Assembly (NCBI GenBank): GCA_964596155.1
Contig: CAZQSI010000014.1
Span: forward strand, 1 to 52,289
From: an uncultured Chitinophagaceae bacterium
GTDB lineage: Bacteria; Bacteroidota; Ignavibacteria; UBA10030; UBA8401
Length of the DNA: 52,289 nucleotides
Reading direction: 5' to 3'
Numbering within the stretch: the first letter of the stretch is position 1; the number at the start of each line of letters is the position of its first letter. Below, piece by piece: positions 894 through 42,546 of this stretch. The notes under the pieces were generated by a model that saw nothing but the letters and a program-made list of their open reading frames with translations, was not told the DNA's origin and searched no databases. Position numbers and translations under genes: made by a program.

Positions 894-3023
894 TTACTTT
901 ACCGGTTGAGGTTCAGGAGCAGGAGCAGCATCTTTTTTCTCCTGCGTCATTAACGCCTTCCTACTGAGATTTAGTCTTCCTTTTTCATCAATCTCAAGTA
1001 ATATTACTTCGATGACGTCGCCGACTTTTACAACATCGGAAACTTTTGCAACGCGTTTGACATCCAGCTGAGAAATGTGAATCAAACCTTCTTTGCCGGG
1101 AAGGATTTCAGCAAAGGCGCCGAAATCCATAATGCGCTTCACCGTCGCTTTATAAATTGTTCCCGGTTCGGGAACAGCGGTAATTGCATTGATCAGCGCA
1201 AGTGCTTTGTCGCTTGCTTCCTTCGTTGTTGCGGCAATTTGGATTGAGCCATCATCTTCAATGTTGATGGACGTCGCACCGGAATCCGCCACAATACTCC
1301 GAATCATTTTCCCGCCCGGTCCGATGACAGAGCCAATCAGATCCGTCGGGATTTTTATCGTCGTAAATCGCGGCGCATACGAACTTAATGCCCCGCGCGG
1401 TTTGTCGACAGCAGCATTCATTTTTTCCAGCTTGTGTAATCTGCCTGCTTTTGCCTGCTCCAGCGCTGTTTTCATAATCTCAAGCGTAATGCCTTGAATT
1501 TTAATATCCATCTGAAATGCGGTAATTCCATCGACGGTTCCGGCCACTTTAAAATCCATATCGCCGAGATGATCTTCGTCGCCGAGGATGTCGCTTAAAA
1601 TCGCCACACGGTCATTTTCTTTCACCAATCCCATTGCAATTCCCGCACATGCCTTTTTAAGCGGCACACCTGCATCGAACAATGCAAGAGAACCGGCGCA
1701 GACCGTTGCCATGGAAGAAGATCCGTTCGACTCAAGAATGTCCGAAACGATTCGAATCGTATAAGGAAATTCTTTTTCGTCCGCTATCAAATTTTTCAAA
1801 GCCCGTTCCGCAAGATTTCCATGTCCTATTTCGCGGCGGCCCGTTGTTCCAAGGCGTCCAACCTCTCCGACACTGAACGGCGGAAAATTATAATGCAGCA
1901 TGAACCGGCGGGGTTTGAATTCAATCAAACCGTCCGTGTTTTGTTCGTCATCCTTTGTTCCCAGCGTGACAGTTGTGAGCGACTGTGTTTCGCCGCGGGT
2001 GAACAATGCCGAACCATGCGCCCGAGGAAGCACAGCAGTTTCGATAGTAATGGTGCGGACATCGGCAAGACCACGGCCGTCAAGGCGTTTTTTCTCGCCG
2101 AGAATCATTTCGCGCATTTCACGTTTTTCGATGTCGTGAATAATTTCCTGAATCGTCTCTTCCTGTTCGGGATATTTTTCTTTCAGCGATTCCAGAACAC
2201 CTTCAACAATTTCATTGCGGCGGGCAGAGCGTTCATCCTTCGCACTGACAGTGTGTGCTGCAGTTCGTAGCTGTTCCGCAGCAAGCTTTTGGACATCGCT
2301 CAATAATGCCTGATCGAATACTTTCGGTTCAACGACACGCTTTGTCACCTTCACAGCGGCGGCGAATTCTTTCTGAATCTGACAAATCTTTTTGATTGCT
2401 TCATGACCGAATGCAAGAGCAGCGAGCATATCCTCTTCCGATATTTCTCTCGACTCCCCTTCCACCATCAGAATGGAGCTCTCGGTGCCGGCAACCGTCA
2501 CGTCCATATCGCTCAATTCAAGTTCGGCGAATGTCGGATTTATTAAAAACGAACCGTTCAACCGTCCCACACGCACTTCTGCGATCGGACCCTGAAACGG
2601 TGAATCGGAGATCATCAATGCGGCCGACGCGGCGCAAGCACCGAGGACATCGGCATCATTCTGTTGATCCGATGAATATACGGTCACAATGACCTGGGTA
2701 TCGCAATGATAGTTTTCCGGAAACATCGGCCGAATCGGTCGATCAATCAACCTGGCGGACAATATTTCCTTGTCCGACGGGCGCCCTTCCCTCTTCAAAT
2801 AACCGCCGGGGATCTTTCCTGCAGCGGATAATTTTTCTCTGAATTCCACTTGAAGGGGAAAATAATCAGCACCTTCTTTTGGCTTTTTGGCAGAGACAAC
2901 TGTAGCCAATACCATGGTGTCCGCATATCGGATCATCACCGCGCCGTCTGCCTGTTTGGCAAACCGGCCTGTTTCAAATTCCAGATCGTACTTGCCGATC
3001 GTGGCGCTCTTTTTTACTATCAT
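894..3023 (-). CDS. pnp: Polyribonucleotide nucleotidyltransferase (PNPase)
   Basis: Two RNase PH domains (RLIDRPIRPMF; RREIGHGNLA; SDILESNGSSSMA; EDHLGDMDFKVAG), KH (VIGPGGKMI) and S1 domains; follows rpsO. Confidence 0.98.
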   Translation of the reverse strand: MIVKKSATIGKYDLEFETGRFAKQADGAVMIRYADTMVLATVVSAKKPKEGADYFPLQVEFREKLSAAGKIPGGYLKREGRPSDKEILSARLIDRPIRPMFPENYHCDTQVIVTVYSSDQQNDADVLGACAASAALMISDSPFQGPIAEVRVGRLNGSFLINPTFAELELSDMDVTVAGTESSILMVEGESREISEEDMLAALAFGHEAIKKICQIQKEFAAAVKVTKRVVEPKVFDQALLSDVQKLAAEQLRTAAHTVSAKDERSARRNEIVEGVLESLKEKYPEQEETIQEIIHDIEKREMREMILGEKKRLDGRGLADVRTITIETAVLPRAHGSALFTRGETQSLTTVTLGTKDDEQNTDGLIEFKPRRFMLHYNFPPFSVGEVGRLGTTGRREIGHGNLAERALKNLIADEKEFPYTIRIVSDILESNGSSSMATVCAGSLALFDAGVPLKKACAGIAMGLVKENDRVAILSDILGDEDHLGDMDFKVAGTVDGITAFQMDIKIQGITLEIMKTALEQAKAGRLHKLEKMNAAVDKPRGALSSYAPRFTTIKIPTDLIGSVIGPGGKMIRSIVADSGATSINIEDDGSIQIAATTKEASDKALALINAITAVPEPGTIYKATVKRIMDFGAFAEILPGKEGLIHISQLDVKRVAKVSDVVKVGDVIEVILLEIDEKGRLNLSRKALMTQEKKDAAPAPEPQPVK

Positions 3024-3067
3024 ATTATTTTCTTCTTTTCTGTGTACAGTAATTTCGTGTGAATAGC

Positions 3068-3337
3068 TTATTTACGTATCGACAATTCGCCGATAATTTT
3101 CCGATATCGATTGATATCTTTTTTCATCAGATAATCGAGAAGACGTCGGCGTTTTCCGACCATTCTCAACAACCCCACCCGGGAATGATTATCCTTTTTG
3201 AACTTTGCGAAATGGTCCGACAGGGAATTGATATTCGCCGTAAGAATTGCGATCTGCACTTCGGGTAAACCTGTATCGTTTGCACCCTTGCCGAACTTCT
3301 TGACGAATTCCTGTTTTTGTTCCTTTGTGATTGCCAT
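3068..3337 (-). CDS. rpsO: 30S ribosomal protein S15
   Basis: 89 aa with [13 protein letters not shown]...[22 protein letters not shown]. Confidence 0.98.
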
Positions 3338-13545: not shown

Positions 13546-13556
13546 CTTTCTTGTTG

Positions 13557-13641
13557 TACCGAGAGCCGGACTTGAACCGGCACTCCTTTAAGGGGAACTG
13601 GATTTTGAGTCCAGCGCGTCTACCAATTCCGCCATCCCGGC
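13557..13641 (-). tRNA. tRNA-Leu (anticodon CAA), CCA not encoded
   Basis: GCCGGGATGGCGGAATTGGTAGACGCGCTGGACT-CAA-AATCCAG...GTTCAAGTCCGGCTCTCGGTA; acceptor stem GCCGGGA/TCTCGGT, long variable arm, 85 nt. Confidence 0.97.
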
Positions 13642-36741: not shown

Positions 36742-36743
36742 TG

Positions 36744-36816
36744 TGCACCTACCAGGACTCGAACCTGGAACCCACTGATTAAGAGTCAGTTGCTCTACCA
36801 ATTGAGCCATAGGTGC
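36744..36816 (-). tRNA. tRNA-Lys (anticodon CTT), CCA not encoded
   Basis: GCACCTATGGCTCAATTGGTAGAGCAACTGACT-CTT-AATCAGTGGGTTCCAGGTTCGAGTCCTGGTAGGTGCA; acceptor stem GCACCTA/TAGGTGC, 73 nt. Confidence 0.97.
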
Positions 36817-40651: not shown

Positions 40652-41479
40652 ATGGAGACAGCACTTAAAGAAACGGTATCATTTATTACATCGAAAACGA
40701 AATCCGTACCGGACATTGCGGTTGTGCTCGGATCAGGTCTCGGCGATTTTGCGCAAGAACTTGTACAACCAGCCGTTATAAGCACATCAGCAATTCCTCA
40801 TTATCCGGTCTCTGCCGTTCAGGGACATGCCGGTAAAATTTTGTTCGGAGCAATTCATAATAATGGAAGAACTTCGAAAAATCTGATGGTGTTTCAGGGT
40901 AGAGTTCACTTTTATGAGTGTGACGACATTCAGAAAGTTGTTTATCCAATCAGAACTGCAGCAGAATTAGGAGTAAAAACACTCGTCGTTACGAATGCTG
41001 CTGGCGGTATCAATCGTCAATTCGAATCGGGAACATTGATGTTTATAAAGGACTATATCAATTTAACCGGTGAAGATCCTCAAAAGGGTGATCATAAATA
41101 TTTATCCGGTCAAAAAAAATTACATGAGCCCTCCCTGTCGGTTGAATTATTGCGCCGCGCAAAAGATATTGCAGTTCAAAATAAAATAGCGGTAAAAGAA
41201 GGCGTGTATTGTTGGACGAAGGGTCCTTCCTACGAAACTGCATCCGAGATCCGAATGATGCAATCAATCGGGGCTGACGCTGTCGGAATGTCCACTGTTC
41301 CCGAAATAATGACCGCAGCGTCGTACGGCATAAATGTTCTGGGAATTTCGTGCATCACGAATATGGCGACAGGAATATCCCCCACCAAACTTTCCCACGA
41401 TGAAGTAACGGAAACTGCCAACCGTGTTAAAGCCGATTTTACGAAATTGGTGAGGGAAATTATTTTGTCTTTCAGCTAG
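40652..41479 (+). CDS. punA: Purine nucleoside phosphorylase (trimeric, PunA/XapA type)
   Basis: VLGSGLG, GHAG, QGRVHFYE, TNAAGGIN, GPSYETASE, VGMSTVPE and ITNMATG motifs. Confidence 0.92.
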   Translation: METALKETVSFITSKTKSVPDIAVVLGSGLGDFAQELVQPAVISTSAIPHYPVSAVQGHAGKILFGAIHNNGRTSKNLMVFQGRVHFYECDDIQKVVYPIRTAAELGVKTLVVTNAAGGINRQFESGTLMFIKDYINLTGEDPQKGDHKYLSGQKKLHEPSLSVELLRRAKDIAVQNKIAVKEGVYCWTKGPSYETASEIRMMQSIGADAVGMSTVPEIMTAASYGINVLGISCITNMATGISPTKLSHDEVTETANRVKADFTKLVREIILSFS

Positions 41480-41483
41480 GACG

Positions 41484-41520
41484 TCAGACGTAGGACACCT
41501 TAAAGGTGTCCTACGTCTGA
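41484..41520. repeat. Perfect palindrome, 18-bp arms with a 1-nt spacer (GTAG-type REP-like)
   Basis: TCAGACGTAGGACACCTT-A-AAGGTGTCCTACGTCTGA. Confidence 0.95.
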
Positions 41521-41529
41521 GGAGTGATA

Positions 41530-42081
41530 ATGAACTTTGCGCAGGGAAAATATTACCACATATTTAACCGTTCAAACAATAACGAATTCGTATTTAAAAG
41601 CGAAGAAAACTATTATTACTTCCTTCATAAATATGAAATGTATATAAAACCGTCCGTCTCGACAATTGCGTATTGTCTCATGCCCACTCATTTTCATTTT
41701 CTGGTAAAGATCAAATGTGATGATAATACAATCATTCAAAACGGAATAAAAATAATGCTCAGCAGTTATACGAAAGCAATTAATAAGCGTTTTCATCGTC
41801 ACGGATCGCTATTTCAACCGCACACAAAAGCAAAAGAAATTGGAGACGAACAATATCTTATAACACTTGTATCGTACATTCATCAAAACCCGCTCCGTGC
41901 AAAATTGGTGCAAAGTCTGGAACAATGGCTTTATTCAAGTTACCGAGAAGCAGCAGGATTCAAAGAAAGTTCGTTTGTTGATTCTGAGTTCTATGAACAT
42001 CATTTTACCACCAAGCAGAATTTTCGAACTTTTTCTGAAAATTTGATAACAGCGATAAGAAAAGAGTATTGGGTTTCGTGA
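41530..42081 (+). CDS. REP-associated tyrosine transposase (RAYT, Y1/HUH family)
   Basis: YYHIFNRS N-terminal motif, AYCLMPTHFHFLV (HUH), GSLFQ, YIHQNP (catalytic Tyr candidate) and WLYSSY. GAGGAG ribosome-binding site 5 nt before ATG 41530; alternative GTG at 41524. Confidence 0.88.
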   Translation: MNFAQGKYYHIFNRSNNNEFVFKSEENYYYFLHKYEMYIKPSVSTIAYCLMPTHFHFLVKIKCDDNTIIQNGIKIMLSSYTKAINKRFHRHGSLFQPHTKAKEIGDEQYLITLVSYIHQNPLRAKLVQSLEQWLYSSYREAAGFKESSFVDSEFYEHHFTTKQNFRTFSENLITAIRKEYWVS

Positions 42082-42082
42082 A

Positions 42083-42123
42083 AAGCAGTCGTAGGACACC
42101 TTTAAGGTGTCCTACGACTGCTT
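42083..42123. repeat. Perfect palindrome, 20-bp arms with a 1-nt spacer (second copy)
   Basis: AAGCAGTCGTAGGACACCTT-T-AAGGTGTCCTACGACTGCTT. Confidence 0.95.
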
Positions 42124-42126
42124 CAT

Positions 42127-42546
42127 TCAGAGGTGATACAACATCAGATAAACAATTACTCCCGTTATCGAAACATAAATCCAAATCGGGAATGTTTTCC
42201 GAGCCAGCGGTTTGTGTAGATCAAATTTTCCCTTTAATCCCCTGTAAAGCGTAAGTATCGCCATCGGCGGTACTACTGCGGCAAGAATGATATGCGATAG
42301 TAAAATTGTAAAGTATAGCGGACGTGTCCATCCTTCCCCCATGTATTTTACCGAGCCGACATTCGCGTGGTATACAAGATAGCTGACGAGAAATAATCCT
42401 GATACGGAAAAGGCGGCAATCATATATTTTTTATGCTGCTCTCTCCTTCCTGCCTTGATATGTCGGTATCCAATAATCAGTAACGTAAAACTGATCATAT
42501 TCAGAAGGGCATTAACTGTGGAAAGATCTTCGAATTTTAAATACAT
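42127..42546 (-). CDS. DUF420-family membrane protein (often linked to heme-copper oxidase assembly)
   Basis: NALLN...H...M..AF..S.LFLVSYLVYH...YF.ILLSHIILA...H...R...PIWIYVSITGVIVYLML pattern. Confidence 0.85.
   Translation of the reverse strand: MYLKFEDLSTVNALLNMISFTLLIIGYRHIKAGRREQHKKYMIAAFSVSGLFLVSYLVYHANVGSVKYMGEGWTRPLYFTILLSHIILAAVVPPMAILTLYRGLKGKFDLHKPLARKTFPIWIYVSITGVIVYLMLYHL

Follow-up and report, generated by a model that had tools for sequence, protein, structure and literature searches.

The question raised by contig CAZQSI010000014.1 of an uncultured Chitinophagaceae bacterium (52,289 nt, the whole of which is called the window below) is whether the 640-nt block at positions 41484–42123, in which a gene for a HUH/Y1 protein lies between two perfect palindromes, is a self-mobile element or a resident gene with its own set of repeats. 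REP-associated tyrosine transposases (RAYTs), named after the repetitive extragenic palindromes (REPs), are regarded as domesticated, immobile, single-copy transposases, and the spread of the gene to new sites or genomes is poorly documented. An initial annotation of the sequence had read the block as a minimal REP/RAYT unit of an under-studied phylum, possibly recently inserted and self-mobile rather than domesticated. The evidence given below makes it very probable that the region is a REPtron, i.e., a single-copy class-2 HUH/Y1 gene (TnpAREP/RAYT) between two cognate "double foot" REPs. The block consists of the following parts:

41484–41520, no strand: REP-L, a perfect 37-nt palindrome, TCAGACGTAGGACACCTT-A-AAGGTGTCCTACGTCTGA, with 18-nt arms and a 1-nt centre
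41486–41518: the 33-nt unit of REP-L, AGAC-GTAGGACACCT-TAA-AGGTGTCCTAC-GTCT, its boundaries set from 64 related copies
41521–41529, plus strand: the leader GGAGTGATA, 9 nt from REP-L to the ATG, which holds a Shine-Dalgarno-like GGAG
41530–42081, plus strand: the RAYT/TnpAREP gene, 183 aa and stop (TGA at 42079–42081)
42083–42123, no strand: REP-R, a perfect 41-nt palindrome, AAGCAGTCGTAGGACACCTT-T-AAGGTGTCCTACGACTGCTT, with 20-nt arms and a 1-nt centre
42087–42119: the 33-nt unit of REP-R, AGTC-GTAGGACACCT-TTA-AGGTGTCCTAC-GACT

The protein and the repeats around it

The two palindromes, the 183-aa Y1/HUH gene and the distances between them (9 nt from the end of REP-L to the ATG and 1 nt from the stop codon to REP-R) were found where the initial annotation had placed them. 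The catalytic residues of the protein are His54 (41689–41691) and His56 (41695–41697) in the motif PTHFHF, followed by Tyr116 (41875–41877) and Asn120 (41887–41889) in YIHQNP, and all four are invariant across 30 aligned homologs. The same alignment has an invariant or almost invariant serine motif, W-x-YSSY, and the start Met of the window gene is that of the homologs. The homologs number more than 739, with a length of about 182 aa and source labels of Bacteroidota, Ignavibacteriales or Fodinibius; the closest is 59% identical. A single-sequence search against PDB sequences returned nothing at E <= 1, and a profile of the family matched a sole entry, 4ER8 (the E. coli TnpAREP bound to its REP), at E 4e-4. 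The AlphaFold2 model of the 183-aa protein had a predicted local distance difference test (pLDDT) of 94.9, and its best fold match by Foldseek was again this structure (4ER8_A, E 2.8e-8, template modelling score (TM) of 0.63/0.69 over 166 columns), in comparison with a TM of only about 0.44 for the TnpA of IS608, ISDra2 and IS200.

The Pfam domain recognized in the protein is Y1_Tnp (29.5 bits, cutoff 23), and its name, "Transposase IS200 like", invites the explanation that the block is a classical IS200-type insertion sequence with TnpA only, the palindromes being its subterminal end hairpins. Indeed, the hairpins flank the gene and an empty site exists (see below). However, Y-x3-N-P is the signature of class 2 (TnpAREP) and not of class 1, to which the IS200 TnpA belongs with its Y-x3-Q (PMC6006769); the only PDB profile match is a TnpAREP, and the fold match to the IS608/IS200 TnpA is much weaker. 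Moreover, both ends are formed by one symmetric palindrome instead of distinct left and right ends, the palindrome is dispersed alone at gene 3' ends, and there is one copy per genome wherever this can be checked. The IS200-type explanation is thus largely refuted by motif, fold, ends, dispersal and copy number, and is highly improbable. The window protein is a class-2 TnpAREP/RAYT and not an IS200 transposase; the clustering with classical IS200 TnpA that the initial annotation had named as fatal to its view did not appear in the motif, the profile match or the fold.

The arms of both REP-L and REP-R are 100% complementary, and the CGTAGGACACCTT-W-AAGGTGTCCTACG core is identical in the two save for the central A/T. 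With up to 3 mismatches, this core has 2 matches in the 52-kb window versus 0 in 100 shuffles, and apart from REP-L and REP-R the 52 kb hold only two hairpin palindromes that reach 14 nt, both short and imperfect. The folding energies as single-stranded DNA (ssDNA) were −20.7 kcal/mol for REP-L (z −8.3) and −24.3 kcal/mol for REP-R (z −12) against shuffled controls. The unit is AT-rich, as described in the initial annotation (about 35% GC versus about 44% in the flanks), and no tnpB adjoins the RAYT gene in the window, also in agreement with it. The RNA genes detected in the window were only tRNA-Leu(CAA) at 13556–13641 and tRNA-Lys(CTT) at 36743–36816, both on the minus strand and neither of them near the unit.

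The inversion of the central base between the two copies, to which the initial annotation had drawn attention, is real, but it concerns a single loop nucleotide that is near-random over the 64 family copies and says little on orientation. Since the central base is the only asymmetry and the loops are variable, the orientation of the flanking REPs is not establishable, and an "inverted" arrangement was dropped as a dependable feature. Among the asymmetric REP variants that occur in the family, some loci have the flanking pair in direct and others in inverted orientation.

Dispersal and design of the repeats in related genomes

The dispersal of the repeat was followed by a scan of GTDB, one genome per species, with the pattern GTAGGACACC-N3-7-GGTGTCCTAC, which gave 95 blocks with 102 perfect copies. 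The eight metagenome-assembled genomes (MAGs) richest in perfect copies had 23, 15, 11, 7, 6, 6, 5 and 5, and nearly all are labelled Bacteroidota or Ignavibacteriae. The two highest counts belong to CALRIY02 (23 REPs) and JBMOHT01 (15 REPs), each with 1 RAYT. A close RAYT homolog was present in only 5 of the 95 blocks, which means that most REP copies are solitary. They are also extragenic: 92 of 102 lie outside open reading frames (ORFs) of at least 100 aa, in comparison with random positions, 87% of which fall inside such ORFs. The context of the 78 scorable copies was unidirectional in 46, convergent in 25 and divergent in 7 cases, with a median distance of 15 nt to the nearest gene 3' end, a distribution matching that reported for classical REPs (PMC3733652). 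The window palindromes are, therefore, true REPs of the "double foot" type. For the initial annotation, few copies always flanking a RAYT would have indicated an IS-like unit, and many intergenic copies a REP family; the tens of mostly solitary, extragenic copies found elsewhere correspond to the latter. The association with RAYT loci elsewhere, the lack of which it had named as a refutation, was also recovered, for example at locus L001, where a 57%-identical RAYT with other neighbours has the same palindrome on both sides.

Apart from one pair within 60 nt (L031), the copies are singletons, so that they do not qualify as REPINs (inverted REP doublets with a short spacer, which fold into a longer hairpin and replicate as a unit); that a double-foot palindrome might itself be a collapsed REP doublet has been raised as an interpretation (PMC6006769). 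Matches to the core in MAGs labelled Dehalococcoidia, Synergistota, Omnitrophota and Proteobacteria, with 1–2 copies each, have other loops and flanks and were excluded from the family. The organism labels of two MAGs are doubtful, namely CALRIY02 (L005–L091, "Synechococcus sp. UW140") and CALROS02 (L039–L095, "Chitinophaga pinensis"): both carry the REP family, CALRIY02 also the RAYT, and their neighbouring genes and closest relatives resemble Bacteroidota-labelled MAGs. In JBAYIS01, a genome with 11 perfect REPs, the RAYT (L083, 832–1366, minus strand) is nevertheless split over two reading frames (two tblastn segments) and is probably a pseudogene; its relative JBAYJG01 (L097/L103) has an intact RAYT at the same locus.

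Several observations weigh against the REPtron assignment. The top NCBIfam match of the protein, NF047646 REP_Tyr_transpos (E 1e-16, 61 bits), is under its cutoff of 80, and the HuH and W motifs (THFH, FQ) fit no published subclass consensus exactly. The flanking palindrome is not recognizable at some family members, e.g., L003/L116. The abundance of up to 23 perfect REPs per MAG is far under the classical figure of more than 100 per genome, and degenerate copies raise the count by only about 15% in the blocks examined. It is unlike the hundreds of copies in enterobacteria and pseudomonads and comparable with the Bertels groups 4 and 5, for which 14–31 occurrences of the flanking 16-mers are reported. 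Finally, the dispersal was established in other genomes with an identical core, the window's own genome being covered for 52 kb, and within these 52 kb there is no further REP besides REP-L and REP-R. The density in related MAGs would predict about 0.3–0.5 extra REPs in a stretch of this length, assuming a MAG size of 2–4 Mb.

The REPs fall into two subtypes with a common 10-nt foot. In type A, a 25-nt core is extended by four more conserved paired positions to the 33-nt unit, the termini of which read A56 G57 N T57 ... A56 N C59 T60 (counts among 64 copies). Position −2/+2 is A, T or G depending on the copy and is complementary in 62 of the 64, and complementarity beyond pairs 5–6 is at chance level. 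Type B, GTAGGACACC[CT]TG-N-CA[GA]GGTGTCCTAC, is without the outer extension. The window REPs belong to type A, their position −1 being occupied by the rarer C; their consensus, AG-N-Y / GTAGGACACCT / NNN / AGGTGTCCTAC / R-N-CT, is a 33-nt perfect palindrome, which both of them extend by a few extra paired bases.

The family set comprised 86 loci, and a metagenome scan had contributed 80 loci. Among the 68 loci with both flanks readable, a flanking palindrome of about 33 nt was present on both sides in 44 and on one side in 22. The geometry is constant over the family (AG-N-T, 11 nt, 3-nt loop, 11 nt, A-N-CT), and the core comes in lineage variants: GTAGGACACC, GTCGGACACC, GTCAGACACC, GGACTCCACC, GGAGGCCACC, GGTCTCCATC, GTCCTACACC, CATCGGATGT and TCATGCCATGA. 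Because the core differs by lineage, GTAG is one variant among many and not a family-wide tag; the features conserved throughout are the AG...CT termini and CACCT beside the loop. The identity of the inner REP arms rises with the identity of the proteins (r = 0.275, a value reached in 0 of 2000 permutations).

Many REPs of the non-GTAG variants (L105, L127, L128, L136, L148–L152 and others) have one fixed asymmetric position, e.g., GGAGTCCACC...GGTGGGCTCC. Paired as G.T when one strand folds and as A.C when the other does, this position lends the repeat a strand polarity that is absent from the symmetric variant of the window. A second, distant Y1 paralog lies beside dinB (DNA polymerase IV) in the same MAGs (L038, 5913–6608, minus strand; L051, 55–450, plus strand). 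This paralog has 231 aa, the motifs NHVH, WQ and YIIDNP and a Pfam Y1_Tnp score of 29.4 bits, and between it and dinB there is a 27-nt variant of the palindrome (GTAGGACACCCTG-N-CAGGGTGTCCTAC in L051 and GTAGGACACCTTTGAAAGGTGTCCTAC in L038), so that the two Y1 paralogs of a genome each adjoin palindromes with the same 10-nt foot.

Direct repeats of at least 45 nt enclose the RAYT gene in 23 of the 68 loci; in the nine loci L139, L131, L127, L177, L164, L126, L170, L172 and L165 they measure 100–350 nt. They are built from clusters of REPs with spacers, which makes the gene look like part of a tandem REP array. Where the identical RAYT P0117 occurs, the DNA downstream of it holds a full REP and then, at a 30-nt period, right-half REPs in tandem (L193, 3041–3130, versus L194/L195/L196, about 3041–3280). 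One sample has about 3 of these half units, and each of three others about 8; hence, the copy number of the REP cluster varies at the population level.

Insertion, exchange and residence of the block

The block lies between two convergent genes, as the initial annotation had described:

40652–41479, plus strand: purine-nucleoside phosphorylase (PNP), the left neighbour, co-oriented with the RAYT gene
42127–42546, minus strand: DUF420 membrane protein, the right neighbour, last in a ctaA-ctaB-DUF420 block and convergent with PNP (stop codon at 42127–42129)

The spacer outside the 640-nt unit amounts to only 4 nt after the PNP stop and 3 nt before that of DUF420. The nearest PNP homologs are 64–68% identical, and two of the corresponding loci, L100 and L101, have the same genes in the same order as the window: SecG, metallophosphatase, thymidine kinase, nucleoside transporter and PNP, facing DUF420, UbiA, CtaA and tricorn protease. 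In these relatives the stop codons of PNP and DUF420 are 9 and 43 nt apart, with neither REP nor hairpin between them, and they represent the empty junction that the initial annotation had proposed to look for. Since the stops of the syntenic relatives are so close, the 640-nt REP-RAYT-REP unit is, by sequence comparison, an insertion in the window lineage. The PNP of the window ends at the residue orthologous to the ends in L100 and L101, and its DUF420 is one codon shorter. The source MAG of L100 has a copy of the window REP elsewhere (L080). In a third relative, L102, the PNP/DUF420 junction is occupied by a gene for a major facilitator superfamily (MFS) transporter.

The empty junctions also bear on the possibility that the palindromes are ordinary terminators or mRNA-stabilizing hairpins of PNP and DUF420, standing beside a HUH gene by chance. 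Both REPs are 3–4 nt past stop codons, REP-R is followed on the minus strand, i.e., the strand of DUF420, by TTTTCA with its four T, and the solitary copies elsewhere lie at the short median distance from gene 3' ends given above. However, the empty sites of the relatives are without a hairpin, and neither REP has a proper T-tract or was called as a T-rich terminator in a terminator scan. Moreover, the same 33-nt design stands by RAYT homologs in most of the 86 loci and co-varies with the protein, and the 20 core bases do not differ among genomes with an identity of about 65% in their housekeeping proteins. As a sole explanation, the terminator is refuted by the statistics of the RAYT association and is hardly conceivable; a secondary role like that of a terminator would fit the REPtron as well.

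Whether the insertion is recent is another matter. Relatives at 65–67% PNP identity are too distant for it to be dated. The low GC content is no mark of recent arrival either and was rejected as such, because all 24 family loci compared have a RAYT gene with a GC content below that of the DNA beside it (median −9 points). At the locus common to L026 and L050, the RAYT genes are 75.5% and the comM genes 81% identical in nucleotide sequence, so the RAYTs have diverged about as far as their hosts. Of the "recently inserted" unit of the initial annotation, the insertion was thus borne out by the empty site and the recency was not.

The family occupies at least 7 contexts: PNP/DUF420, AccA, comM/DUF1304, the L012 gene, L097/L083, HisKA/5-enolpyruvylshikimate-3-phosphate (EPSP) synthase and peptidase C14/NFACT. 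Clearly, the block relocates or is exchanged over evolutionary time. It might be an autonomous minimal transposon, in which the flanking palindromes are the ends, the 640 nt are excised as ssDNA and reinserted by gene 3' ends, and the solitary REPs are by-products or footprints. This would agree with the clean filled-versus-empty site, where the unit sits in an otherwise 9–43-nt convergent spacer, with the many contexts in which REPs are found nearly always on both sides and tight between genes, and with a RAYT gene that is always AT-richer than the host DNA. The presence of the RAYT at comM/DUF1304 is also polymorphic among close relatives, this junction being RAYT-free in genomes whose ComM is 88–93% identical to that of L026. 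In comparison, the same RAYT was found in two contexts in no genome or sample. The identical RAYT P0023 has one context on 24 contigs and P0117 one context on 8 contigs, in both cases from many samples; the RAYTs of L026 and L050 have diverged together with their hosts; and the RAYT-linked REPs are far outnumbered by solitary ones. Two paralogs on one 435-kb contig are each about 50% identical to the window RAYT and differ mutually. In addition, block transfer by homologous recombination between relatives would give the same presence/absence polymorphism. An autonomous transposon is accordingly an unlikely description of the block.

Neither the REP DNA pattern nor the protein family was found in viral contigs, and the closest plasmid match is 36% identical. 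With P0023 and P0117 fixed at their loci and no close plasmid or viral kin, the RAYT of the relatives is single-copy, stable in its locus and rarely on plasmids. The suggestion of a self-mobile rather than domesticated gene found no support in this comparison, while that of a REP/RAYT system in a poorly studied, Bacteroidota/Ignavibacteria-labelled lineage is supported.

In three related loci, part of the upstream gene, its 3' end, is present again beyond the REP-RAYT-REP block as a diverged direct duplicate (81–90% identical):

L026, 1403–1500 versus 2152–2249: comM
L050, 2198–2291 versus 2975–3068: comM
L012, 981–1039 versus 1720–1778: upstream gene

The duplicated stretch comprises the last 59–98 nt of the upstream gene. 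In the window, by contrast, the unit is not flanked by a second copy of either the PNP or the DUF420 3' end. The downstream comM copies of L026 and L050 differ at 7 of 93 positions (5 synonymous, 1 stop-to-stop and 1 non-synonymous) with the frame intact, which points to a constraint still acting on the protein level, and the 300 nt of intergenic DNA that follow cannot be aligned. The downstream copy is better conserved between the two loci than the RAYT gene and the neighbouring intergenic DNA are. RAYT-free comM–DUF1304 junctions are available from the close relatives P0241, L200 and L201. The native comM end of L201 has 14–15 differences to the downstream copy and 22 to the upstream one; no such preference for the downstream copy was seen with the native end of L200. 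Our best guess is that at the comM and L012 loci a cassette of replacement end, REP, RAYT and REP is polymorphic through homologous recombination. A further proposal, that the block is a mobile cassette which inserts at gene 3' ends or slightly within them and, at least in some cases, supplies a replacement of the last 20–31 codons, is doubtful. If true, it would be a Y1/HUH element integrating without harm to its target, which has not been described for RAYTs or IS200/IS605.

Proposed activity and comparison with known systems

By analogy with the TnpAREP of E. coli, Stenotrophomonas and Marinomonas (PMC8266576, PMC3479197), the enzyme of the window would bind the REP extruded as a ssDNA hairpin, for instance at replication forks. 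Because the REP is symmetric, both strands would present the same substrate. The three characterized enzymes cleave C|T beside their REPs (PMC8266576), and the terminal CT of the 33-nt unit is a candidate cleavage site here. Cutting the REP foot at this conserved C|T would leave a 5'-phosphotyrosine via Tyr116, and the rejoining of the strand to another 3'-OH might seed or remove REP copies at low frequency.

A promoter scan detected no sigma-70-type promoter between PNP and the RAYT gene, Bacteroidota-type promoters being outside the coverage of the tool. As there is too little space for a separate promoter and the scan gave none, the RAYT gene is probably transcribed by read-through from PNP. 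The GGAG of the leader is a putative ribosome-binding site, and the REP-L hairpin, 1 nt from it, probably holds expression low and could act on transcription as well as on translation. Both flanking REPs, and the solitary ones likewise, probably double as 3'-end hairpins of the neighbouring transcripts. As for its history, the REP-gene-REP unit would have arrived as a block after the split from the relatives with 65–67%-identical PNP and then remained as a resident single-copy gene.

In terms of its type, the REP/RAYT system is known, and the window locus adds a member with a clean comparison of a filled site, a 640-nt block, with an empty one, a spacer of 9–43 nt. The general picture of REP/RAYT biology is unchanged by it. 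It opens, nevertheless, a large uncharacterized family, represented by over 700 protein clusters from MAGs with Bacteroidota, Ignavibacteria or Balneolota labels, and the symmetric 33-nt REPs co-varying with the enzyme are a compact natural data set on how TnpAREP reads its hairpin. Literature searches with the 10-mer core returned unrelated primers only, and the supplement of PMC6006769 is without the window REP; the specific core GTAGGACACC...GGTGTCCTAC thus appears to be absent from the searchable literature. The Bacteroidetes repeats given by Di Nocera et al. are of the CGTC type only, the GTAG type being absent from that listing.

"Double foot" REPs, palindromes of 20–40 nt with 5' GT[AG]G and 3' C[TC]AC, have been known since 2018 for TnpAREP subclass 2.4, Bacteroidetes included (PMC6006769), so the full GTAG...CTAC form, which the initial annotation had contrasted with the usual GTAG plus short hairpin, is not new. 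Subclass 2.4 (Quentin et al. 2018; Bertels group 4) shares with the window locus the fully paired double-foot REP and the occurrence in Bacteroidetes, as in Runella slithyformis and Solitalea canadensis (GTAGAGACAAGG-CATG-CCTTGTCTCTAC), the core of which differs from that of the window. The motifs of this subclass are NH[IFV]H, WQ and YIxNNP in a protein of about 194 aa, as opposed to THFH, FQ and YIHQNP in about 182 aa in the window family. A REP inserted within the RAYT gene has been called unique to subclass 2.4 (Quentin et al. 2018, PMC6006769). Three loci of the window family have a whole 33-nt REP in frame within the gene, namely L115 (gene nt 202, locus about 811–845), L146 (nt 212, about 3212–3246) and L169 (nt 197), in each case between the HuH and Tyr motifs and adding 11–25 residues.

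Subclass 2.6 (Bertels group 5, mostly Bacteroidetes) resembles the window family in its length of about 179 aa, in the motif YIH[QN]NP, in the C-terminal "SS" motif and in flanking structures that recur in the genome (about 31 occurrences of the flanking 16-mers). It differs in its HuH and W motifs (NH[LIV]H and WQ) and in its "atypical" REPs (e.g., GCTAGCGCGAGCG...), which depart from the 33-nt AGNT...ANCT design. As compared by published motifs, the family looks like a mosaic: the double-foot and in-gene REPs point toward 2.4, and the length, YIHQNP and SS toward 2.6, with THFH and FQ fitting neither of the two.

With the IS200/IS608 elements, the window unit has in common a HUH/Y1 fold that would act on ssDNA, a gene between hairpins, and the presumed logic of guide and cleavage at the hairpin foot. 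What sets those elements apart, and was not seen here, is a Y-x3-Q motif, an enzyme that is a dimer, left and right ends that differ, several identical copies and frequent carriage on plasmids. The closer counterpart is the REPtron of E. coli K-12 (YafM, REP/BIME, 4ER8; BIME, bacterial interspersed mosaic element), in which the HUH motif is likewise combined with a single Tyr and an Asn four residues on, the gene lies between cognate REPs, and the REPs are dispersed extragenically at gene 3' ends, as they are here in related genomes. The conserved CT at the foot of the REP is also common to both, and in E. coli it is the cleavage position of the enzyme (PMC8266576). The two proteins are only 16% identical over the fold alignment, and that of the window has an additional C-terminal helical region. 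The repeats differ as well: the E. coli REP is an imperfect, bulged hairpin whose single 5' GTAG foot is unpaired, and it occurs hundreds of times, often in BIME pairs, whereas the window REP is a perfect symmetric 33-nt palindrome, its GTAG paired to CTAC, with copies in related genomes that are mostly singletons and number in the tens per genome.

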